A stretch of 41,739 bases of DNA from an uncultured bacterium (lineage in GTDB: Bacteria > B130-G9): NCBI GenBank assembly GCA_965372715.1, contig CBDVDH010000033.1, positions 1 to 41,739 on the forward strand, given 5' to 3'. Below the pieces are notes generated by a model that saw only the letters and a program-made list of their open reading frames with translations, was not told where the DNA came from and made no database searches. Below, in pieces: positions 4,114 through 37,820 of this stretch (the stretch's first letter is position 1; each line of letters opens with the position of its first letter). Made by a program: the position numbers and the translations under genes.

Positions 4114-5424
4114 TTGCGCGTCAGGCGATACGAGGCCGAGAACATGAAAACGGCCCTCAGGAATATCCGGGACGAGCTCGGGCCCAACGCTTTCGTTCTC
4201 TCGACACGTCGCATCAATAGAAAGGACAAGTTCGGCAGACTGAAGACACTCATTGAGGTGAGCGCAGCCTCCGACGTGGTGCAGGTGAGTAACTCCAAGC
4301 AAGATGCGGCGCCCGTCGGGGCGGGTTCAGCCGACGGAGCCAGGGCTTTCAGCCGCCGTAGCTCTTCGAGCTACTATGGCGAAGGAGGCGCTATGGCGAA
4401 GTCCGCTCGAGACTCCGACATGGTCGGCTCGCTCCAGAGTCAGGTCGATCAGCTCAAAAGCGAGCTTGCGTTATTGGGGGGACAACATCCGGCGCAGGCG
4501 ATCGAGAGTATCAAGGAAGAGATAGTTGAACTAAAGGATTTGGTTGAGTTCGCAACGGATCAATGGGCAGAGCAGACCGTCAATGACTATGGCCCGATTT
4601 TGGGCGCGCTGTTTCGCCGGTTGAAGCGCTCGGATGTCGATCACAGGTTGGCGACGAAACTGATTGCGATAACGTCAAGGGAGCTTGCGAAGTGCCCAAA
4701 GATCGACGAAAAGGAATCGCTCAAGGTGCTCTTTGACGTGATGAAGCGCCAGACGCTGGTATCGGGGTCGATAGAGCTTCTAGAATCAGGTCCTAAAACC
4801 GTTGTCCTTATCGGCCCGACCGGTGTTGGCAAGACGACTACGCTTGCCAAAATCGCCGCCCAATACTCTATGTTCAGAAAGAAGAAGGTCGGTCTCTTAA
4901 CGATAGACACGTTCCGAATAGGGGCAGTAGAGCAGCTCAGGACCTACGCGAACATCCTCGAGCTGCCCCTCAAGGTCGCCAACACCCCGGAACAGATGCG
5001 GAAGTTCGTTTCGGATTACAGCGGCATGGACCTTGTGCTCATCGACACGGGTGGGAGAAGCCAAAAGGACAAGGCTAAGATGGCGGAGCTATTAAACTTC
5101 GTCGGTGGGCGCGACGATATGTATTACCAAGTGCATCTGCTCTTGAGCGGCGCAACGAAGAATAGGGACTTGGTGGAAATCACTCGAGAGTTTGGAAAGG
5201 TGCCTACGGATTATGTCATCTTCACCAAGCTCGACGAGTGCAATAGCTTCGGTGGGATACTAAATGAGATTCTGTGGACGCAGAAGCCGGCCAGTTATCT
5301 CACGACAGGCCAGAGCGTCCCCGATGATATTGAGGTGGCTGAGGCGGGTCGTATTGTGGAACTCATTCTGACAAGTACTTTCCAAAAGAAGGTGTCCGGC
5401 GCCTTGGGTAAGAGGGCCAAGTGA
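4114..5424 (+). CDS. flhF: Flagellar SRP-family GTPase FlhF
   Basis: GPTGVGKTTTLAK, DTFRIGAVEQL, DTGG, TKLDE, GQSVPDDI. Confidence 0.96.
   Translation: MRVRRYEAENMKTALRNIRDELGPNAFVLSTRRINRKDKFGRLKTLIEVSAASDVVQVSNSKQDAAPVGAGSADGARAFSRRSSSSYYGEGGAMAKSARDSDMVGSLQSQVDQLKSELALLGGQHPAQAIESIKEEIVELKDLVEFATDQWAEQTVNDYGPILGALFRRLKRSDVDHRLATKLIAITSRELAKCPKIDEKESLKVLFDVMKRQTLVSGSIELLESGPKTVVLIGPTGVGKTTTLAKIAAQYSMFRKKKVGLLTIDTFRIGAVEQLRTYANILELPLKVANTPEQMRKFVSDYSGMDLVLIDTGGRSQKDKAKMAELLNFVGGRDDMYYQVHLLLSGATKNRDLVEITREFGKVPTDYVIFTKLDECNSFGGILNEILWTQKPASYLTTGQSVPDDIEVAEAGRIVELILTSTFQKKVSGALGKRAK
4326..4403 (-). repeat. Nested pair of family A repeats in frame inside flhF
   Basis: Outer arms TTCAGCCGACGGAGC ... 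CTATGGCGAAGTC enclose inner TTCAGCCGCCGTAGC-TCTTCGA-GCTACTATGGCGAAG; reverse complement of the 11305-11340 element. Confidence 0.8.
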
Positions 5425-7906: not shown

Positions 7907-7946
7907 GCAGACTTCGTTCGCCGCCTGGCGAACTATGTCGGCTGAA
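7907..7946 (+). repeat. Palindromic repeat family B (40 bp)
   Basis: GCAGACTTC-GTTCGCC-GCCT-GGCGAAC-TATGTCGGCTGAA; matches copies at 17317, 22173 and 32365. Confidence 0.85.
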
Positions 7947-7978: not shown

Positions 7979-9013
7979 ATGGGACTTGAAATGACCGAAG
8001 ATGCAGCGTTCTTGACGTTGCCATTAGCGCCGGAAGGAGAGCTTGGGCCACAGTATAATGTGATTTCTGGCGTCTTCCAGAAGCTGCCGGATGTGCTCAA
8101 GGAGACGCTTGGCATAATACTGGGCGCAGAGATAGAGGTCTCGGAGCCCAAGATGGCTTCTTTCTCGAAGGAAGAATTCGCTGCCGCCATCGACCCGGCG
8201 GCCATGTGCCTCGTCCATACAACCTTCTCCGAGGGGATTGAAGGGGCTTCGTTCTTAATTGCCAAGAATGACACAGCAAAAGTTCTGGTCGAGATCATTC
8301 TTGGCGCGCCTTTAGAGGGTGAGGACGAAGGGCTTTCTGCCGATTCGATGGACGCATTTCTTAAGCTGGTCAACCAGATATGCGGGAAGGTGAACCTGAG
8401 CTTCTCGGAGGTTGTGGGAAGCACAGTCAGCACGGGCACGTTCACCGCATTTGACAAGGAATCTCAAGAGCTATCGGAGTTGATTCCTGATGGTGACGCG
8501 TTCTGCGCGGAGCTCGGAGTCTCCGCGGCCGATAAGCTTGAAGGGGCCGTTTTCTTTCTCTATTCAGCGTCCGCTGTTGAACAGCTCGCCGCCGCTTCTG
8601 AGGCGCCTGAAGGACCTTCGATGGACGATACAATCGTCGAGAGCCAGGCCGAGGAACCGGAGGCCCCAGCGCCCAGGCTAGAGTCGGAACCCTCCGAGGT
8701 CGCGGCAGAGGCCGACTTGTCCGCCCTAGCGTCAGCGGAGGCGGAGACGGATGAGCGGCTCAAGGTCATCATGGATATGGAGATGCCTGTCCACGTCAGA
8801 TTCGGCGAGACGCAGATGCACATAAAGGACCTTCTCCAGCTCGGCGCCGGCTCGATCATAGAGCTTAACAAGTCCGTCGATGCACCGGTCGAACTCGTCG
8901 TGAACGAGGACCTCGTCATCGCCGAGGGCGAGGTCGTTGTGGTCGAATCGAACTTCGCTATTCGCATAACTGGGGTTAAGAGTAAGGCCTATCGCATCAA
9001 GGGCCTCGGGTAG
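7979..9013 (+). CDS. fliY: FliY-like switch protein (CheC-like domain plus FliN/SpoA domain); start may be 7991
   Basis: C-terminal FliN domain (VRFGETQMHIKDLLQLGAGSIIEL, IAEGEVVVV), N-terminal CheC-like region and acidic linker; follows fliM. Confidence 0.85.
   Translation: MGLEMTEDAAFLTLPLAPEGELGPQYNVISGVFQKLPDVLKETLGIILGAEIEVSEPKMASFSKEEFAAAIDPAAMCLVHTTFSEGIEGASFLIAKNDTAKVLVEIILGAPLEGEDEGLSADSMDAFLKLVNQICGKVNLSFSEVVGSTVSTGTFTAFDKESQELSELIPDGDAFCAELGVSAADKLEGAVFFLYSASAVEQLAAASEAPEGPSMDDTIVESQAEEPEAPAPRLESEPSEVAAEADLSALASAEAETDERLKVIMDMEMPVHVRFGETQMHIKDLLQLGAGSIIELNKSVDAPVELVVNEDLVIAEGEVVVVESNFAIRITGVKSKAYRIKGLG
8716..8750 (+). repeat. Palindromic repeat family C in frame inside the fliY linker
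   Basis: CTTGTCCGCCCTAGCGTCAGCGGAGGCGGAGACGG; 31/35 identical to 9016-9050. Confidence 0.8.
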
Positions 9014-9015
9014 GG

Positions 9016-9050
9016 CTTGTCCGCCATAGCTTCAGCGGAGGTGGAGATGG
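9016..9050 (+). repeat. Palindromic repeat family C overlapping the helicase start
   Basis: CTTGTCCGCCATAGCTTCAGCGGAGGTGGAGATGG; contains GGAGG (9037-9041) and ATG (9047). Confidence 0.8.
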
Positions 9051-10957
9051 CTGACGTAGCCTCGATTTTTGGCAAGGGCGGCCCGCTGGCGAGGACCATC
9101 AAGAACTTCGAGCAGCGCCCTGACCAAGCGCAGATGGCAAGGCTCGTGTGGGAAGCGATTCAGACCAAGCGCCACCTAATCGTCGAAGCTGGTACCGGAA
9201 TCGGCAAGAGCCTCGCCTACTTAATCCCGGTCATCGCAAGCCGCAAGAAGGCGATCGTCTCAACCAAAACCAAGACGCTTCAGGAGCAGCTCCTCAACCA
9301 CGATCTGCCGCTGCTCCGGAAAGCTTCAGGGACTCGTTTTACCGCAACCTGCTTGAAAGGAAGGGGCAATTACCTCTGCCTGAAGAGGTTTAGGGACTTC
9401 GAGTCGCAGCCGCTGTTCGTTTTCCCTCGTGAGATCAAATACTTCCGCCAGATACAGAACTGGGCGAAGCGAACGGGAGTTGGCGACCGTTCGGAGCTGC
9501 ACGCCTTGCCCGAGAAGCTAGCGGTTTGGACTGACATCTGCTCGCAAGGGGACCTCTGCACAGGTCCGAAATGTCAGTTCGTGAGGGACTGTTTCTTAGC
9601 TAAGGCGCGTGAGGCGGCAGACCGGGCTGACATCGTCGTCATTAATCACCACTTGTTCTTCGCGAATCTTGCCAATCGGTTGTGGACGGATACGTCGATG
9701 TTGCCGGAATGCGAATTGCTAGTCTTTGATGAGGCGCATGATATCGAGGAGGTTGCATCACAGTTTCTGGGTGTCTCCGTTGGGCCTGGGCAGATCGGCG
9801 ATCTCGTGAACCGAATTGGCCGGCAGATCAGCCTCGAGAAAGTCGAGGTCGAAGGATTGGCCTCGAGGCTCAATAACGTTCAGAAGGCAAGCAGAGATTT
9901 CTTCGGGCGTTTTACGGCGCTGCGTGATGGGACTTTCAAGCTGATGGATGACATGTTCGATGCCGCATCCCTTGATGCACGGGACCAGCTCTGCAAGCAG
10001 CTTATGGCGCTTGCCAAGTCGCTTGCCAACATTGCATCAGGTGGGCTCGACGTTTTTGAGCCCCTTTCTCGCCGATCCCGCGAAACGGCTCATTCCATAA
10101 CCGCTGCGTGCGACCTCAAAGATGAACGCCTCGTTCATTGGGCGGAAGCGAGAGATGGAAGCATACAGCTCAAGGGGACCCCGATCAGCCTTGCTGGAAC
10201 GTTTGCAGAGCATGTATTCGCAAAGGTCCCGACCGTGATATTGACCTCCGCCACCCTCTCCTCGGAGCGATCGTTCAATTATATCAAGAGCCGCCTCGGC
10301 ACGCCGGATCCGCACGAATTGATGGTCAGCTCTAGTTTCGACTTCAGGAAGCAAGCGCTGCTCTACATCCCGAGGCGCCTGCCACTGCCCGACGATCCTC
10401 TGTTTGTCAAAATGGCGGCAGCCGAGATTGTCAAGATACTCAAGAGAAGCAGCGGCAAGGCCTTCGTTCTCTGCACCAGCAACGCCAACATGAGTGCGTT
10501 GCACGAGATTGTGAGCGGCAAGATCGAGCAGCGCTGCTTCATCCAAGGCGAGATGCCCAACGCGGCGTTGCTCGAGAAGTTCCGCCGCGACGTTGGCTCG
10601 GTCCTTTTCGCGACCGCGAGCTTCTGGCAGGGCGTTGACGTCCAGGGCGAGGCGCTGAGCTGCGTCATAGTCGATAAGCTGCCGTTCGCCGTTCCGAGCG
10701 ACCCCATTATTGAGGCGCGTATCGAGCGGATACGGTCCGAAAATGGCAATCCGTTCTATGAGTTTCAGGTTCCGCAGGCGGTAATCGCGTTGAAGCAGGG
10801 CTTTGGTCGGCTGATAAGAACTAAGACCGACCGCGGCGTCCTCTCGATACTTGATAAGCGGATACTGGACAAGGCCTACGGGCGCAAGTTCCTTGAGAGC
10901 CTGCCGCCCTGCCCCATCACCCACGACATCGAGGCCCTCGATCGATTCTTCAGGTAG
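9047..10957 (+). CDS. ATP-dependent DNA helicase, DinG/YoaA family with Fe-S cluster
   Basis: Q motif FEQRPDQ, EAGTGIGKSLAYL, FDEAH, LTSATL, FWQGVD, QGFGRLIR; Cys cluster. Confidence 0.94.
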   Translation: MADVASIFGKGGPLARTIKNFEQRPDQAQMARLVWEAIQTKRHLIVEAGTGIGKSLAYLIPVIASRKKAIVSTKTKTLQEQLLNHDLPLLRKASGTRFTATCLKGRGNYLCLKRFRDFESQPLFVFPREIKYFRQIQNWAKRTGVGDRSELHALPEKLAVWTDICSQGDLCTGPKCQFVRDCFLAKAREAADRADIVVINHHLFFANLANRLWTDTSMLPECELLVFDEAHDIEEVASQFLGVSVGPGQIGDLVNRIGRQISLEKVEVEGLASRLNNVQKASRDFFGRFTALRDGTFKLMDDMFDAASLDARDQLCKQLMALAKSLANIASGGLDVFEPLSRRSRETAHSITAACDLKDERLVHWAEARDGSIQLKGTPISLAGTFAEHVFAKVPTVILTSATLSSERSFNYIKSRLGTPDPHELMVSSSFDFRKQALLYIPRRLPLPDDPLFVKMAAAEIVKILKRSSGKAFVLCTSNANMSALHEIVSGKIEQRCFIQGEMPNAALLEKFRRDVGSVLFATASFWQGVDVQGEALSCVIVDKLPFAVPSDPIIEARIERIRSENGNPFYEFQVPQAVIALKQGFGRLIRTKTDRGVLSILDKRILDKAYGRKFLESLPPCPITHDIEALDRFFR

Positions 10958-11299: not shown

Positions 11300-11304
11300 C
11301 GGCT

Positions 11305-11340
11305 GACTTCGCCATAGTAGCCCCGGCTACGTCGGCTGAA
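11305..11340 (+). repeat. Palindromic repeat family A (minimal copy)
   Basis: GACTTCGCCATAGTAGC-CCCG-GCTACGTCGGCTGAA, an imperfect hairpin between convergent genes. Confidence 0.85.
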
Positions 11341-17316: not shown

Positions 17317-17356
17317 GCAGACTTCGTTCGCCGCGCGACGAACTACGTCGGCTGAA
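17317..17356 (+). repeat. Palindromic repeat family B (40 bp)
   Basis: GCAGACTTCGTTCGCCGCGCGACGAACTACGTCGGCTGAA between convergent genes. Confidence 0.85.
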
Positions 17357-20194: not shown

Positions 20195-20370
20195 TTTGGA
20201 CTGCGGTGGCTTGACACCGCTTTGGCTCGCCGCGGCTTGACGCGGCACTAGCTCTGACTGAGAACGGTCTATTCTCTGGATCGCCTCCTGCAAGGTCAAA
20301 AGAGCCAGTTATGAGAGGGTGGTGTCAAGCCGCCACCAATGAAAGCGGCGTCGGGCCGCCGCACTCCAAA
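20195..20370. repeat. REPIN/MITE-like element with 29 bp terminal inverted repeats and two inner hairpins
   Basis: TTTGGACTGCGGTGGCTTGACACCGCTTT (20195-20223) is inverted at 20342-20370 (24/29 match); inner hairpins with GGCTTGAC at 20229-20246 and 20318-20337. Confidence 0.75.
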
Positions 20371-22172: not shown

Positions 22173-22235
22173 TTCAGCCGACATAGTTCGCCTCTTTATT
22201 CGGCGAGTCTTCGACGCGCGGGGAACGAAGTCTGC
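22173..22235 (-). repeat. Palindromic repeat family B with expanded loop (63 bp)
   Basis: Minus strand GCAGACTTCGTTC ... GGCGAACTATGTCGGCTGAA, with 23 extra bases relative to the 40 bp copies. Confidence 0.8.
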
Positions 22236-29572: not shown

Positions 29573-30766
29573 CTACGGCTTTAAGTTGTCTGCCGGTGGC
29601 GCCTCCTCGATGGGGGTCCAATTCAGGATCGCATCGCGTGCCTTTTGAAGCTGGAGGTCGTCGTCCGCATCCCCTTTCGACGGGGCGGTGATGTCGGGCT
29701 CGAGGCCCAGGTTGTGCACTTTCTGACCGAAGGGGCCCAAATACTCCGACGTTGAGAGAATCACCCTCGTACCGTCTGTAGTGGCGATGCAGTCCGTGCC
29801 GAGGGCAAATCCGAATGTTTTTTCCCCCACGAGCCTTGCGATCCTATGCCCGCGCAAGCAAGCGGCAAGTACTTCCGCCTCGCCGACGGTGCGCTCGTTG
29901 ACAATAACGACGACAGGAACGACCTCGCGCATAGCGACAACGCTGCTATCTCTCGCGACCTTTTTCATGTTCGCCGCGCGGCGAATCGATTGGACGAAGA
30001 TGGGTCCTGACCTCACAAAGCGGCTGCAAATGTCCTTGACCTCTTCAATCGAGCCGCCGATGTTGTCTCTGACATCTATTATGATCCCCTTTAATCGAGA
30101 GGCTCCGATTAAAGATAGAGCCTCCTTGAACGTCTTGAACACGCCATCGGCGAACCTGCGAACCCTGAAGTGGAGGATACCGTCCTCGCCCACGGCATAA
30201 TCCGCCGGAAAAGAGGCGTAAATCTGGCGGTGGAGCTTTGCATGTTTCATCTTGAAGTCATTGGGGCCATAGACCGTCAACGTAACCTCGCTCTGTGGGT
30301 CGCCTTGCAGATTCCGCCGAAGCTCATCTAGCGTCAAGCCTCGAACTGAATGGCCATCAATCGCCGCTATCCTGTCGCCAGGCGCTATCTGAGAGCCAGC
30401 TGACGGTGAGTCGCTCTCACAAGAGATCACAATAAAAGCCCCGCCCTTCAACATGATGTTCAAGCCCAGGTCCGCCTGCGGTTGACGCCCCTCGTCGGCA
30501 AATACTACCGTTGAGCGAGCATCGAGGCTCGAGACGAGTCGCTTGGTCCCGTGTCTGAGCAGCTTGCCCATATCCACCTCATCAACGTAGAACTCGTCTA
30601 TCGTCCGAAGTGTCCGGACAAGCGTTGAGAGATAGGGGAAACAGGCCTCGAGCTCGCTTATCTTCGCCGCGCGGCGAACTCGCTCAGCTTGAGAAAGGCA
30701 AAATGTGAGGACCCCCAGTCCCGCAACAACGGCGATTGCCCACCGGACGAAGGGCTTGACACGCAT
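29573..30766 (-). CDS. S41/CtpA-like PDZ protein, probably catalytically degenerate
   Basis: ATG 30766 after AGGAGG; PDZ (GDRIAAIDG), IIDVRDNIGG, LVGEKTFG, GLEPDI. Confidence 0.85.
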   Translation of the reverse strand: MRVKPFVRWAIAVVAGLGVLTFCLSQAERVRRAAKISELEACFPYLSTLVRTLRTIDEFYVDEVDMGKLLRHGTKRLVSSLDARSTVVFADEGRQPQADLGLNIMLKGGAFIVISCESDSPSAGSQIAPGDRIAAIDGHSVRGLTLDELRRNLQGDPQSEVTLTVYGPNDFKMKHAKLHRQIYASFPADYAVGEDGILHFRVRRFADGVFKTFKEALSLIGASRLKGIIIDVRDNIGGSIEEVKDICSRFVRSGPIFVQSIRRAANMKKVARDSSVVAMREVVPVVVIVNERTVGEAEVLAACLRGHRIARLVGEKTFGFALGTDCIATTDGTRVILSTSEYLGPFGQKVHNLGLEPDITAPSKGDADDDLQLQKARDAILNWTPIEEAPPADNLKP

Positions 30767-31896: not shown

Positions 31897-34041
31897 TCAA
31901 AGCATAGAGGCGGGATCGACATCGACCGTCACGCGGATGTCAGAAGGCCCCATTTTGGCTCTTTGACCTCCGCTCACGCCATGGCGGACAAGCTTGAGGG
32001 CTTTGAGCCTTTCCAAGAGGAAACTGTGCAGCCGCGTGGAGCTATAGGAGCGCACAAAGGCCTGGAACCGATACCTGTCCTTGAGCTTCGCTATCGGCGC
32101 CTCGGCCGGCCCGAGTATGTGGATGTTATCGGACTGACCTGCCCGCAGGACCTCCCCTACACATTCAGCGGCCCTTGAAGTCCTCTTGTAATCCTTGCCG
32201 GACACCAAGAGGGACGCCAACCTCGTCAATGGCGGCAAACCCAATCTCGTCCGGAACTTCATCTCCTGCTCAAAGAACGATGTATAATCCTGCGCCGCGG
32301 CCGCCTTGATGGCGTAATGCTCGGGCGAATACGTCTGGAGAAGGACGGTTCCCCGCTTGGCGTGGCAGACCTCGTTCGCCGCTTTGCAGCTACGTCGGCT
32401 GAACCTGCCTGGCCGACCGCTGACCTGTGTCAGAAGCTGAAAAGTCCGCTCCGCAGCTCGAAAATCAGGCAGGTTGAGAATTGTGTCAGCGAGCACGACA
32501 ACTACCAGCGTCAGGTGCGGGAAATTGTGCCCTTTGGCGACGATCTGGGTGCCGACAATGATGTCAACCTCGCCTCTCGTAACGGCCGACAAGGCCCTCT
32601 CATATTTGCGCCTCGTCGAGATGGCGTCGCTGTCCATTCTCAGGATGCGTGCGTCGGGAAAAAGCCGAGCCGCCTCCTCTTGAACCTTCTCTGTTCCGAA
32701 ACCGATGAACTTGATCTGGTCCGAACGACATGCGTCGCACTGGGTCGGCACGGGTCGTCTTGTCCCACACAAATGGCAGACTAATGAGCTTCTAGCACTG
32801 TGGTATGTGAGCGTAATGTCGCAATGGTCGCACCGAAAGACGTGGCCGCACTTGCTGCAAATCAAGAACGGTGAAAACCCCCTTCGATTCATGAAGAGAA
32901 GCGCCTGCTCGCCGGCCGCAAGGGTTCTCCCCACGGCGTCAGAGGCCTCGTCGGCAAGGATCGACGAGCTCTTTTGCGCTTCCTGTCGCATATCGATCAC
33001 TTTCACGTCAGCCAATGGCCGTGAATCGACCCTTTGGCTCAGGAAGATGTATTGGTATTTCCCCCTGACAGAATTGTGAAACGTCTCAAGCGACGGGGTC
33101 GCGCCGCACAAGACCACGGGACACTTGAAGATTGAGCCTGAGACCACAGCAACGTCTCTTGCGTTGAAATGAGGCGCGCGCTCCTGCTTGTAGGTCGCCT
33201 CGTGCTCCTCATCGACGACGATGAGGCCCAGACGCGCAAGTGGTGCAAATACCGCCGAGCGGACGCCGATCATCACGTCAACCTCCCCGCGATAGGCCCG
33301 CTCCCACTGGTCCCGACGCTGCGCTGGCGTGAGTTTGCTGTGAAATATCCCTGCCCTGTCGCCGAATCTGCGAGCGAAAAGCGAAAGCAGCGCTGGCGTG
33401 AGGGATATCTCCGGGACCAGAATCAGCGCTTTCTTGCCTTTTTTCAGCACGTGTTCGGTCGCGCGAAGGAAAACCTCCGTCTTGCCGCTGCCCGTCACGC
33501 CGTGAAGCAGAATCGGTTTCGTATCCTTTGCGTCCGCCGCGGCGATTATCCTCGAAAGCGCATCGCGCTGCTCACTAGTGAGCTCGAGGTTCTCTGTCGC
33601 TTCGTCACTGTCGGTCCACAGGTCGGCCGGCAGCGAGGATATGATATCAATCGGCCGTCTCCCCCGCCTGCTGGTTCGCTCGACTCCGCCCGTGCTGATT
33701 TGCCCCTTAACTTCGCCAAGACCGTGTGGGACCGCCGCCTCAACTACCGTGCCAAGAGGCGCGAGATAATAGGACGCAACCCACTCAATGAGCTTCAGCA
33801 TTCTGCGCGACAGGACGGGCAAACTATCGACGACCGATATCAACTCCTTGACAGATGAGAGGCTGCAACTTGGGATGAGGCGTATGACGACGCCGATGCG
33901 CTGTCGGGTCCTCAGCTCGACTATCACTCGTTTGCCGACGGCTACGTCCCGGCTGAGATGCTGCGGAACGGCGTAAGTGAAGCACTTTTCTGCGCCGATG
34001 CCCAGGGAGACCTCGGCGAACTGTTTGTATGGATGATTCAT
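31897..34041 (-). CDS. priA: Primosomal protein N' (start uncertain: 34041, 34104 or 34110)
   Basis: GVTGSGKTEVF, LVPEISLT, DEEH, four CxxC motifs, PDFRAAER, C-terminal VDVDP. Confidence 0.96.
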   Translation of the reverse strand: MNHPYKQFAEVSLGIGAEKCFTYAVPQHLSRDVAVGKRVIVELRTRQRIGVVIRLIPSCSLSSVKELISVVDSLPVLSRRMLKLIEWVASYYLAPLGTVVEAAVPHGLGEVKGQISTGGVERTSRRGRRPIDIISSLPADLWTDSDEATENLELTSEQRDALSRIIAAADAKDTKPILLHGVTGSGKTEVFLRATEHVLKKGKKALILVPEISLTPALLSLFARRFGDRAGIFHSKLTPAQRRDQWERAYRGEVDVMIGVRSAVFAPLARLGLIVVDEEHEATYKQERAPHFNARDVAVVSGSIFKCPVVLCGATPSLETFHNSVRGKYQYIFLSQRVDSRPLADVKVIDMRQEAQKSSSILADEASDAVGRTLAAGEQALLFMNRRGFSPFLICSKCGHVFRCDHCDITLTYHSARSSLVCHLCGTRRPVPTQCDACRSDQIKFIGFGTEKVQEEAARLFPDARILRMDSDAISTRRKYERALSAVTRGEVDIIVGTQIVAKGHNFPHLTLVVVVLADTILNLPDFRAAERTFQLLTQVSGRPGRFSRRSCKAANEVCHAKRGTVLLQTYSPEHYAIKAAAAQDYTSFFEQEMKFRTRLGLPPLTRLASLLVSGKDYKRTSRAAECVGEVLRAGQSDNIHILGPAEAPIAKLKDRYRFQAFVRSYSSTRLHSFLLERLKALKLVRHGVSGGQRAKMGPSDIRVTVDVDPASML
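31965..31992 (-). repeat. Family C repeat in frame in the priA C-terminal domain
   Basis: Minus strand CTTGTCCGCCATGGCGTGAGCGGAGGT; 24/27 identical to 9016-9042. Confidence 0.75.
32365..32403 (+). repeat. Family B repeat (39 bp) in frame in priA
   Basis: GCAGACCTCGTTCGCCGCTTTGCAGCTACGTCGGCTGAA; encodes FSRRSCKAANEVC on the minus strand. Confidence 0.88.
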
Positions 34042-34114
34042 TTGAGCCGATGAGTTTGATTGAGGCTTGCACATAAGTCCGTTAGTTTCGGTCCCGTTGT
34101 TCATTTGCACAGCA

Positions 34115-34394: not shown

Positions 34395-37300
34395 CTATGG
34401 GGTTAAAATCATGTCGTCCATGTTCATTTCGAGGCCCGTAGCTGTGTCGTGGCTTGAGTCCAGGCCGCGCCAGGCCGACGGAGGTAGGACCGTTGCCCGC
34501 CTTGTCAGAACCAATGAGGTCACCTCGTAGCTCACGATGCTGCCGTTCTCGCTGTCTGTGATCATGCAGGTGATTAGGTATTCACCCGATGCGTCACGCC
34601 TGGAGAACGTGTAGTTTAGAAGGTCAGCAACTACCGACACTCCGCCGTCGAGGAACGCTGAATCGACCGCTAGCAGCTCGAAGCTGCGACCGCTGGGCAG
34701 TGTGACCCAAATCCGCGCATCAATCACAACGGTTTCACCGCGGTTTGAGGCGCCAATCGCTACGACCAACTCATCGCCGGGTATGAACCGTGACTTGTTG
34801 GTGGAGACATCGACGGAAATTGCCCAATTGCCCTCAAACGGCGTTGCGGCAACCAGCTCAGAACGCTGCTCAACACCAAAGTAATCAACCGCAACGAGGC
34901 AATAGTAGTAGGTTACGCCGTTGATAACGCTCTCGTCGGTGTAGCTGTAGAACTGAGGCTCAACCGTCGTCCCGGCGCCCTCAATCAGCCCGCGATTCAA
35001 TCTAGCGAAACGACCGTTCAGGTCCGTGCTGCGCACCAAGTAGAAGCCGAGGTTCTCCATCTCGGAAACCGTCTGCCAGGTCAGGACAACTCTGCCGTCC
35101 CCAGCGGAGGCCTTGAACCAGGAAAGCTCTACTGCCAGCGAAACCGCATTGGTCGTGTTCGACAGACCCGAAACGTTGCCGCGATCGTCCGTGCTCGTCA
35201 TCGCAAACCAGTATTCCACGCTCTCCTCGGGCATCTCGAACTCGTAGATCTCGAGCGTGCCCGGAGTCGCGGGAATAATCTCGCTCGTGTCGAGCGGCGT
35301 CGCCGCATCGAAGTCATCCATCGTGTTGATCGGGCCAGTGTCGCTGTAACGGATGTCGTAGCTCACGCAAGGCCCTGAAGTCGCATCCGTCGCGTCGTCC
35401 GCGGGCGCCGTCCAACTCAGTACAACGCCGGCTGTCGCAACTGCGCCAGTCTGCGCCTCAAGCGTGCTGATCGTCCCAGGTGGGATAAGATCGTCGTATC
35501 CGATGCCAAACAGCGACACCTCAACGTTCGGCGTCTCGGGATCGTCAGTCGAGACCGTTACGATGCCAGTAATCGTCCCAATTGTGCTCGGTGTGAACTC
35601 AACCGTTACCTCTACCGGCGAGATTGTGGCAATAGTCACCGGGAGCTCCGTGTCAACTGTAACCACGTAATCGGCTGTGTCAGACGTTATGCCAGTGAGA
35701 TTGAGCGCCACCAACTGGCTCGTGTTGGAAATCGTGAACGTCAACTGCGCTGCGTCGCCAACGAAGAGCATTCCGAAATCAAGCGAAGTCGGCTCGACAA
35801 CCACATTCGGTGCGGCCTGGGCGGTGCCGGTCAAAGTAATCTCATAGGTCGGTTCGACAGGATCGTTGCTCAAAATGGTCAGAACGCCGGTCGTAGCACC
35901 GATCTCAACCGGGTGGAAGGACACGTCAACGAACAGAACGTAGCCTGGCTCAATCGTCCACTGCGTTCCTATGCCGGCGCCCGTGGTGCCAAGCGTGCCG
36001 AGGGTCGCGAAGTCGAGCGAGAAGCTCTCAGCGTTCTCTGTGATATCGATATTCGTTATCTCAAGATTGGCCTCGCCCATGTTGGCGATCTCGAGCGTCC
36101 CTGTTGTAACTTCGCCTACGCGAAGCGTGCCAAAGTTCACAACCGCCTCGAGATTCGGGAACTGCATGAACGGCGCCTCGAGGCCAACGCCCGAAACGTC
36201 GATGTCCCACACGGGGGTGTCGGGATCGTCGCTATAGACCGTGATCACGCCCGAAATCGTCCCTATCGTGCTTGGGCAGAAGCGAATCGTGAACGACTTG
36301 GTCTCGCCGGTCGCGATCGTCGCGTTCGTTACGCCGACAATCGTGAAGTCAGTCGCGTTCGATGTGATGTTCGTCACGCTCAAGAGAACGGCCGTGGCGT
36401 CCGTTGCGATGTTTGTTACATCGAGCGAATAGTCGCTAATGCCGCGCTTCGGCGTGTCGGGGAATTGATACTCAGTGATCGTGTCGATGTCCGGCGCAAC
36501 GCCAAATCCGGCCAAGTCGAACACTACGTTGGCGCCGAAGTCCGGATTGGCACTAGAGAGCACCAGCGTTCCGGTCGTCGCGCCAAGCTCCGTCGGATGG
36601 AACGTCACCGTAACTGTTGCCAGGCTCCCGATTCCGAGGGTCCCTGTCGTCGGCAGAACCGTGAACGGAAGCGCCGTCGCGAAGTCATACCCGAAATCTG
36701 CGGTCGCGCTCGTCGCGTTCTTCATCACAAATATCCACTCGACGGTGTTGCACAGGCGAACCGCGCCGAAGTCATGGCCGTCAACCGCAGCCGCCGGGTC
36801 GAACGATATATCCGCCTCGACCGCGGTTCCTGACAAGTTCACGACGAAGTCGCCGTCAGGGTCGTTGCTCACGAACGTTACTGTGCCCTCATAGTCGGTC
36901 TGCGCTTGGGGACAGAACGCGATCACCATCCCAATCGTTGCACCCGAACCGATTGTGGCTGGAGTCGAGAGAGTAAACTCGAATACAACGGGATCGCTGC
37001 TTATAACATCTGTAATCTCCAGGTCGCCATGGCCGTCGTTGCCTATGACGAAGTCGCCGGGCAGACATGCGCCAACGACCCCGTAGCCGAAGTCAAGAGT
37101 GTCCGGCGTCACAGCAATATCGGGCGGGACCCCGGTCCCCGTAACGTTCACGACGAAATCGCCGTCTGGATCGTTGCTCACGAACGTTACTGTGCCCGCA
37201 TAGTCCATTGCTGCCGGGGGGTAAAATGCTATGACGACCCCAATCGTGGCGCCTAAGTCGATTGTGGCGGGAGTCGAGAAAACGACCTCGAATACCGAAG

Positions 37301-37820
37301 GATCGCTGCTTGTCACATTCGTAACCACCAAGTCCCCATGTCCGAGGTTGGCGAGTATGAAGTCCGCTGGCAAGCACGAGCCAGGGGGCGCATAGTCGAA
37401 GTCGTAAGTGTCCGGCGTCACAGAAATACGTGGCGGGACGCCGGTTCCCGAGACGTTGACGACGAAGTCGCCGCCGGGATCATTGCTCACGAACGTTACC
37501 GTGCCCGCGTAGTCGGTCTGAGCTTGGGGACAGAATGCTATGACGACGTTCTGTGTGGCAGCCGACGCGACCGTGGCAGGTGTTGAGAAGATAACCTCGA
37601 ATACTACGGGATCGCTGCTTATCACATTCAAGACTGACAGCGTTGCGTTGCCGTTGTTGGCGAGCGTGAAGTCCGCCGGCAAGCACGAGCCAATGTCCCC
37701 GTAGCCGAAGTCGTACGTGTCCGGCGTCACAGAAATATCAGGCTCAGCGGCCAGCAAACCTTGCGCGGCAACGACCATCACAAAAGCCGCAAGAACAACT
37801 GTGAGCTTCCTCATACTCAT
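34395..37820 (-). CDS. Large secreted Ig-like protein with seven choice-of-anchor-D/ASPM-SPD-2-Hydin-like domains and an FN3-like module
   Basis: GGAGG RBS, signal peptide; repeated P.I.V.P...DFG...N.G...L.....F.P......G......SNDP; WTAPADD...SYDIRYS; AVELSWF. Confidence 0.88.
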   Translation of the reverse strand: MSMRKLTVVLAAFVMVVAAQGLLAAEPDISVTPDTYDFGYGDIGSCLPADFTLANNGNATLSVLNVISSDPVVFEVIFSTPATVASAATQNVVIAFCPQAQTDYAGTVTFVSNDPGGDFVVNVSGTGVPPRISVTPDTYDFDYAPPGSCLPADFILANLGHGDLVVTNVTSSDPSVFEVVFSTPATIDLGATIGVVIAFYPPAAMDYAGTVTFVSNDPDGDFVVNVTGTGVPPDIAVTPDTLDFGYGVVGACLPGDFVIGNDGHGDLEITDVISSDPVVFEFTLSTPATIGSGATIGMVIAFCPQAQTDYEGTVTFVSNDPDGDFVVNLSGTAVEADISFDPAAAVDGHDFGAVRLCNTVEWIFVMKNATSATADFGYDFATALPFTVLPTTGTLGIGSLATVTVTFHPTELGATTGTLVLSSANPDFGANVVFDLAGFGVAPDIDTITEYQFPDTPKRGISDYSLDVTNIATDATAVLLSVTNITSNATDFTIVGVTNATIATGETKSFTIRFCPSTIGTISGVITVYSDDPDTPVWDIDVSGVGLEAPFMQFPNLEAVVNFGTLRVGEVTTGTLEIANMGEANLEITNIDITENAESFSLDFATLGTLGTTGAGIGTQWTIEPGYVLFVDVSFHPVEIGATTGVLTILSNDPVEPTYEITLTGTAQAAPNVVVEPTSLDFGMLFVGDAAQLTFTISNTSQLVALNLTGITSDTADYVVTVDTELPVTIATISPVEVTVEFTPSTIGTITGIVTVSTDDPETPNVEVSLFGIGYDDLIPPGTISTLEAQTGAVATAGVVLSWTAPADDATDATSGPCVSYDIRYSDTGPINTMDDFDAATPLDTSEIIPATPGTLEIYEFEMPEESVEYWFAMTSTDDRGNVSGLSNTTNAVSLAVELSWFKASAGDGRVVLTWQTVSEMENLGFYLVRSTDLNGRFARLNRGLIEGAGTTVEPQFYSYTDESVINGVTYYYCLVAVDYFGVEQRSELVAATPFEGNWAISVDVSTNKSRFIPGDELVVAIGASNRGETVVIDARIWVTLPSGRSFELLAVDSAFLDGGVSVVADLLNYTFSRRDASGEYLITCMITDSENGSIVSYEVTSLVLTRRATVLPPSAWRGLDSSHDTATGLEMNMDDMILTP
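36816..37742 (-). repeat. Three tandem 309 bp (103 aa) repeats
   Basis: GTCCGGCGTCACAG recurs at 37101, 37410 and 37719 (period 309). Confidence 0.92.

Follow-up and report, generated by a model that had tools for sequence, protein, structure and literature searches.

The closest described systems are, on the one hand, the intragenic GTAG/CGTC REPs and the Rickettsia palindromic elements (RPE) treated in Di Nocera et al. 2013 (PMC3733652), whose text also lists repair genes with double repeat inserts, and, on the other, the Ssn enzymes with their NTS/SRM hairpins, for which the main text of Chenal et al. 2025 (PMC11893778) raises, without testing it, the idea that the enzymes spread their repeats. 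Other Bradyrhizobium repeats are the subject of the text of PMC5082802. Our literature search, which for these two papers covered the text of PMC3733652 and the main text of PMC11893778, found no paper on the repeat family described below, or on in-frame repeats with GIY-YIG genes. Further, the term "priA" is absent from the main text of PMC3733652, and "primosom" and the insert peptide are absent from its text supplements.

The locus compared with these systems lies in a 41,739-nt stretch of DNA from an uncultured bacterium (hereafter the window), in a gene for the primosomal helicase PriA in which the 3'BD, the SF2 helicase core, the Cys-rich region and the C-terminal domain are all present. 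Specifically, the 39 nt at 32365-32403 translate on the minus strand, on codon boundaries, into FSRRSCKAANEVC (PriA residues 570-582), which sits between QVSGRPGR, helicase motif VI, and HAKRGTVLLQTY. The original prediction, that an exact 39-bp copy of a repeat lies in frame directly after motif VI, is borne out by this translation, as is its observation that the copies at 7907 and 17317 measure 40 nt, against 39 nt in priA. The features involved are as follows.

31897-34110, minus strand: priA, 737 aa, complete, with 3'BD, helicase, Cys-rich region and C-terminal domain, and a structural match to solved PriA.
32404-32427, minus strand: QVSGRPGR (helicase motif VI), residues 562-569, the last codons of which are the target flank.
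32365-32403, minus strand: 39-nt hairpin element, a decayed "family B" copy, residues 570-582, at a 13-residue gap in orthologues.
31963-31992, minus strand: second in-frame priA insert, a 30-nt "Y" hairpin element, residues 707-716 (LVRHGVSGGQ).
32137-32138, minus strand: site empty in the priA of this genome and filled in the sister species.
7907-7946, minus strand: family B copy, 40 nt, intergenic, with an intact hairpin.
17317-17356, minus strand: family B copy, 40 nt, intergenic.
22173-22235, plus strand: composite family B copy, 63 nt, intergenic.
11302-11340, minus strand: main-family copy, 39 nt, intergenic.
4326-4406, plus strand: nested element, 81 nt, in frame in an SRP54-type GTPase gene (4114-5424).
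8716-8745, plus strand: Y element, 30 nt, in frame in a FliM/FliN-domain gene (7979-9013).
9016-9045, plus strand: Y element, 30 nt, at the start of a helicase frame (9017-10957).

Among 26 PriA frames extracted from 30 priA loci (the other four gave no frame under the filter used), the 13-residue insert occurs only in this genome (G000) and its sister species (G001), and 24 frames are without it. In three insert-free members of the family, the Arg codon is followed directly by the His codon at this site, and the two solved PriA chains that were compared show a 13-residue gap there, so that removing the element restores the canonical spacing, as had been predicted. More broadly, a pattern-based parse gave a loop of 3-4 residues after motif VI in 145 of the 150 best library homologues, and of the remaining five, four were short by eye and one was unparsed; the PriA studied here scores 17. 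Hence, the predicted 13-aa gap appears in genome frames, library homologues and solved chains alike, and no orthologue with a long loop was found among them. Comparison with the insert-free family members revealed no target duplication at 32365-32403. We conclude that this segment is a precise in-frame insertion of a repeat and not a product of chance. The alignments trace it to a single event in the ancestor of the genus, which placed it after the final Arg codon of motif VI and before the His codon that follows, with the target bases neither duplicated nor deleted.

The precision of insertion is a property of the family as well as of the one site. Our survey of filled and empty sites covered 30 loci derived from 32 matches in the sister species, plus 25 loci of the related Y unit, and found four sites that are filled in the sister species and empty in this genome (by 42, 42, 81 and 39 nt), together with a fifth, 30-nt Y site, the one clean pair among the 25 Y loci, several Y loci of the sister species without a clean orthologue alignment being left uncounted. 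All five pairs have sharp ends and no target duplication, which, with the insert-free relatives, supports the earlier claim of a precise insertion without such duplication. The ends defined by these pairs are TTCA and GTCTGC, and GTAG lies 10 nt inside. The priA gene itself illustrates the process, in that the sister species has a third insert, an 81-nt nested element at the site matching 32137/32138, where sequencing run X4 carries a simpler unit, while the Y insert at 31963-31992 is common to both species and missing from three other family members. The second insert, the third insert of the sister species and the decayed state of the priA copy had all been absent from the original prediction. 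Of the five pairs, one lies in the methionyl-tRNA synthetase of the sister species (L049:284-2332), which contains a 42-nt in-frame element where this genome's counterpart is empty, and the Y pair lies in the S41 peptidase gene, downstream of priA, where the sister species has 30 nt in frame at what is here an empty site (29665-29666). At locus L047 of the sister species, a 40-nt element interrupts a frame that, by its motif, resembles a group II intron reverse transcriptase.

The same comparison exposed a target preference. Read in the priA sense direction, 35 of the 39 elements have a C at the fourth base 5' of their junction (p 1.6e-15); with identical flanks counted once, the share is 33 of 37. 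The opposite flank shows no motif. At the motif VI insert this base is window position 32407 (G on the plus strand), and all three priA insertion sites fit the preference. It recurs in 55 of 69 unique flanks of a genome-collection scan, which come for the most part from Desulfobacterales records, with a few belonging to copies of the type found in this lineage. Among Y elements, 21 of 31 rows show it, some rows having repeated flanks or being false matches. Exceptions are the Y pair at the S41 peptidase (L252), nested insertions and four of five unique viral flanks. The family thus prefers targets with a C four bases 5' of the junction. Guidance of the target by pairing of the element's 5' bases, suggested by a fold computed with flanks, was rejected for lack of covariation between base 3 of the element and base +3 of the target. 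Within the window, whose copies point both ways, a replication-strand bias was likewise unsupported.

The repeat itself is numerous. A search of this genome with its right-end pattern gave 35 exact matches, against 0 with the pattern reversed as a control, and 39 complete elements with both ends were counted. Written on the priA sense strand, a unit consists of a 4-nt tail, a 6-bp stem, GTAG, a variable inner hairpin, CGAA and the closing stem; the priA copy reads TTCA, GCCGAC, GTAG, inner hairpin, CGAG (consensus CGAA) and GTCTGC. This layout fits 24 of 30 short elements, the priA copy failing the pattern, and the minimum-energy fold of the main 42-nt family uses a different pairing, so the layout is a sequence grammar rather than a proven structure. 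The change from CGAA to CGAG occurs in the priA copy of this genome only, with the sister species and all four sequencing runs keeping the consensus base, and the inner right arm of the copy has one base fewer than the 40-nt copies. Because of these two changes the priA copy folds no better than shuffles (z of +0.5 on one strand and -0.9 on the other; the copy at 7907 has -3.9). The insert differs by one residue between the two species. The proposal that the 39-bp copy combines a B left arm with an A-like right arm is unneeded, since the sister species' orthologue of the copy at 7907 already ends ...GCGAG-CTA; judged by its sequence, the priA copy is probably a 40-nt B unit that lacks one base of the inner right arm.

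The inner hairpin of family B exists separately as a perfect 16-bp palindrome, with 65 copies in this genome at up to one mismatch, and the same nested composite is found at three places; the 81-nt element at 4326-4406, in a GTPase gene that is probably FlhF-like, is the composite that forms the third priA insert of the sister species. The 16-bp palindrome lies at 29970-29985 and 30663-30678, and it is found alone, in GTAG-type stems and in degenerate tRNA-Asn copies. The repeat family is abundant in other phyla, in Desulfobacterales and other records, often nested in itself and in either orientation. Rfam returned no match on the window. Two further repeats were observed in the window, namely three tandem 309-nt copies, 72-74% alike, at 36808-37725 inside a 1141-aa frame (34395-37820), and a 47-nt imperfect inverted repeat in the intergenic stretch 20195-20370.

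Insertion into coding genes is a recurrent outcome. By our own gene calls, 10 of the 39 elements lie inside coding frames, all of them multiples of three in length and all in one orientation, and an eleventh falls at codon 10 of a frame with a probably miscalled start. Orthologue gaps confirm three of the in-gene elements besides that of priA, and one of the ten hosts has no Pfam match. The original prediction had attributed the survival of the priA insert to its length being a multiple of three; the frame does stay open, but length is a weak filter, because 20 of 28 intergenic copies are multiples of three as well. The one-way orientation is not explained by stop codons and target supply, which together predict a sense share of 0.55-0.60 (10 of 10 observed, about 0.006 by hand), and nor is the opposite bias of copies between co-directional genes (10 vs 3 in a manual tally), several of which lie just before ribosome-binding-like sequences.

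These properties place the elements beside the intragenic REPs and RPE as far as these are described in the text of PMC3733652. In both cases the repeats are short and palindromic, mostly intergenic, in frame in a minority of copies, including within DNA replication and repair genes, and sometimes present twice in one gene. Here, the dispersed palindromic character is seen in 39 elements, of which intact copies fold and the priA copy is decayed, and in-frame insertion into a conserved gene, missing from orthologues, is seen in priA and three further genes. The priA insert is an instance of a known habit, that of palindromic repeats being translated inside housekeeping genes. The elements differ from the GTAG REPs as presented in that paper, in that GTAG is internal, a 4-nt tail precedes an outer stem, GTAG and CGAA are paired and no RAYT gene is a neighbour. 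Assignment to the GTAG-tagged REP/RAYT system was rejected, with no unpaired terminal GTAG and no pairing of a Y1 gene with the repeat at any of four Y1 loci or 94 element loci. So was assignment to MITEs, given that one end is a 4-nt unpaired tail and that five filled/empty pairs lack target duplication.

The insert-bearing PriA still looks functional, to judge from its sequence and its modelled structure. The 95.9% complete assembly has a single priA, with no second intact copy and no decay signal, so that neither of the circumstances named beforehand as counting against the insertion was encountered. The two carriers are separated by 35 synonymous and 26 non-synonymous changes, for a dN/dS of 0.23, near the 0.17 of a pair of non-carriers, and the Walker A Lys, the DE and the Gln/Arg/Arg of motif VI, all invariant columns, are kept. 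AlphaFold, run with a 117-sequence alignment (the single-sequence model, at pLDDT 36.5, being unusable), gave the insert-bearing protein a mean pLDDT of 92.4 and a pTM of 0.93. The block with the 13-residue insert drops to pLDDT 66, the next strand resumes immediately, and the Y insert is disordered (pLDDT <50 at model residues 540-546). The expected surface loop is thus seen in the model, with the insert looped out and the motor fold kept. Against canonical PriA (PDB 8FAK, 6DCR, 4NL4, 6DGD), the protein is alike in its full domain set, its fold (TM about 0.8 to solved PriA) and its catalytic motifs, and differs in two repeat-derived loops (13 + 10 residues) and in family-wide substitutions in motifs III and VI. 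As for retention in mRNA, one metatranscriptome contig covers 32213-32481 without a gap, and hence spans the insert, although it is a single unstranded contig of depth 3.7 from a related strain and may be DNA; no joint skipping the insert was found in the 4 runs examined of 19 listed sequencing runs.

The family-wide substitutions give some substance to a different reading, in which the insert impairs the motor and is tolerated since this family's PriA depends little on its helicase and acts mainly as a primosome scaffold, though we consider it unlikely. Of 117 conserved columns, 10 are not kept by the protein, where the median is 3 and the maximum 12, and insert-free relatives deviate at nearly all of those 10. 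Further, every family member, insert or not, has a Pro in motif VI, a residue seen in 2 of the 146 PriA that were parsed, this protein among them, and a Gly for Ser in motif III (about 33100), found in 4 of 139; these substitutions predate the insert. A relaxed motor could help the insert to be tolerated, because ATPase-dead E. coli priA alleles are viable according to the text of PMC4504706. However, the catalytic Lys, the DE, the Gln and both Arg are kept, unlike in the pseudohelicases described there, purifying selection continues and the AlphaFold model keeps the fold. The best reading remains that the element is selfish and non-autonomous, a hairpin that a working PriA tolerates as a surface loop in the manner of intragenic REP and RPE elements.

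What moves such a hairpin can be approached through the enzymes that accompany it. Besides four genes for Y1 transposases, this genome carries a pair of small GIY-YIG genes. The first of the GIY-YIG genes, at 52075-52317 of contig C8, encodes a single-domain protein of 80 aa, stands behind tmRNA and is preceded by a hairpin with the elements' stem-GTAG...CGAA-stem layout. With the layout pattern fixed on this genome before its relatives were scanned, it was found within 150 nt upstream, on the sense strand, in 46 of 66 distinct GIY-YIG relatives taken from the best 80 of 343 loci, against 0.1 in shuffles, 6 of 1000 random windows and 4 of 66 downstream of the gene. The hairpin is thus one-sided relative to the gene, no IS-like unit having been found, and a tRNA lies upstream in 19 of 60 loci of this kind. 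Within the family, a literal Y element stands before a shortened remnant of the gene in G002; at tmRNA, the gene is absent from G003 and G006; and the two genomes with an intact gene, this one and the sister species, have 35 and 32 element copies against 0-6 in other members, a comparison of few, related and incomplete genomes. The best solved relatives of the protein are UPF0213 and SLX1, NCBIfam returned no family for it, and cd10449 would be a possible label. The second small GIY-YIG gene (contig C5, 49200-49900) has an intact tRNA-Asn as its neighbour and is bracketed by two broken copies of tRNA-Asn, in which the 16-bp palindrome takes the place of the middle part.

The arrangement recalls the Ssn system as far as the main text of PMC11893778 describes it, since in both a small single-domain GIY-YIG gene stands next to one copy of a dispersed hairpin whose 5' tail is short and unpaired, and in both the informative flank is 5' of the hairpin, where SsnA cuts. 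The tie to a hairpin here is one of shared layout, not of end sequence, for the priA element family; that hairpin stands on the upstream side only, in many cases after a tRNA or tmRNA, and the protein is nearer to UPF0213/SLX1, with a 29-residue local match to an Ssn-type protein flanked by NTS-like repeats. The weakness of that match and the closer UPF0213/SLX1 hits tend to speak against a cd10448-type protein. The elements are not SRM repeats, as none of the 39 matches the SRM pattern and the hairpin before the GIY-YIG gene also fails it. Two other genomes (G041, G045) combine the present repeat family with Ssn-type genes that have NTS-like repeats on their flanks.

That the 80-aa protein mobilises the elements is plausible, if somewhat short of probable. 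We infer this link rather than observe it, because no relative has the exact ends and no nuclease gene accompanies 94 element loci elsewhere. Specifically, the exact TTCA-GCCGAC end of the priA element family occurs in none of the 66 distinct relatives; no autonomous unit with the family's ends was found among the best 80 of 343 metagenome GIY-YIG loci; and neither a GIY-YIG nor a Y1 gene was found in 88 complete-element loci of the genome scan (flanks of up to 800 nt, 33 of 113 loci being shorter) or in 6 viral loci. More tentative still is the general proposal that a non-Ssn, UPF0213/SLX1-like clade of 80-aa GIY-YIG proteins, encoded behind tRNA or tmRNA, recognises the stem-GTAG...CGAA-stem DNA hairpin and drives the precise insertion of hairpins of 30-90 nt, without target duplication, where a C stands at minus 4.

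Enzymes of the IS200/IS605 type insert without target duplication beside a one-sided target motif. That habit, the four Y1 genes in the genome and the GTAG within the element would suit movement by one of the Y1 (RAYT-type) HUH transposases instead of the GIY-YIG protein. We find this improbable, as none of the four Y1 loci has an X or Y element, other palindromes being found there, as the 88 genomic and 6 viral element loci contain no Y1 gene, and as GTAG is internal, after the stem, and not terminal as defined in the text of PMC3733652. It is also doubtful that no dedicated enzyme is involved and that spread and module exchange were the work of host recombination, repair or reverse transcription, the GIY-YIG tie reflecting shared ancestry only. 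The nested composite at three places, with a simpler unit at one of them in run X4, fits gene conversion, and two fragmentary, repeat-rich genomes of other lineages (G041, G043) yielded no gene of this GIY-YIG clade. Yet the sharp, constant ends in five filled/empty pairs and a target base at a fixed distance point to an enzyme that measures from the hairpin. Finally, removal of the insert from the transcript, or its adoption for regulation or a new contact, is highly improbable, for although both species, and the strains behind four runs, retain the insert, and all ten coding copies share one orientation against an expected 0.55-0.60, the RNA-library contig keeps it and no skipping joint was found, it has already undergone a residue change between the two species and lost its hairpin, and similar inserts occur in unrelated proteins.

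Taken as a whole, the account of a non-autonomous mobile hairpin, inserted precisely, tolerated as a loop in a working PriA and moved most likely by the GIY-YIG protein, is one that we hold to be likely. Under it, the 80-aa protein would recognise the stem-GTAG...CGAA-stem hairpin in single-stranded DNA and, by analogy with SsnA and its own repeat, may cut 5' of it. The priA insert would have persisted because it is stop-free and in frame, and because, in the structural model, it falls in the short turn after motif VI, from which it can loop out with the following strand and the motor fold kept. Later it presumably decayed as a hairpin and became a near-neutral passenger.

The priA insert is thus a tolerated passenger of a known kind, and what merits attention is the clean insertion rule of the family, together with its testable, probably non-Ssn GIY-YIG candidate. 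Immediately after SF2 motif VI lies a turn whose length is constant in about 170 examined PriA and which, as the insert shows, can accept 13 residues. With filled and empty pairs, a target preference and a candidate enzyme in the same genome, the mover of transposase-less, REP-like repeats becomes testable in vitro. If the proposal for the GIY-YIG clade is true, its members would mobilise, across several phyla, some of the smallest mobile elements known, and would keep supplying proteins with new loops, even next to the arginine finger of a helicase.
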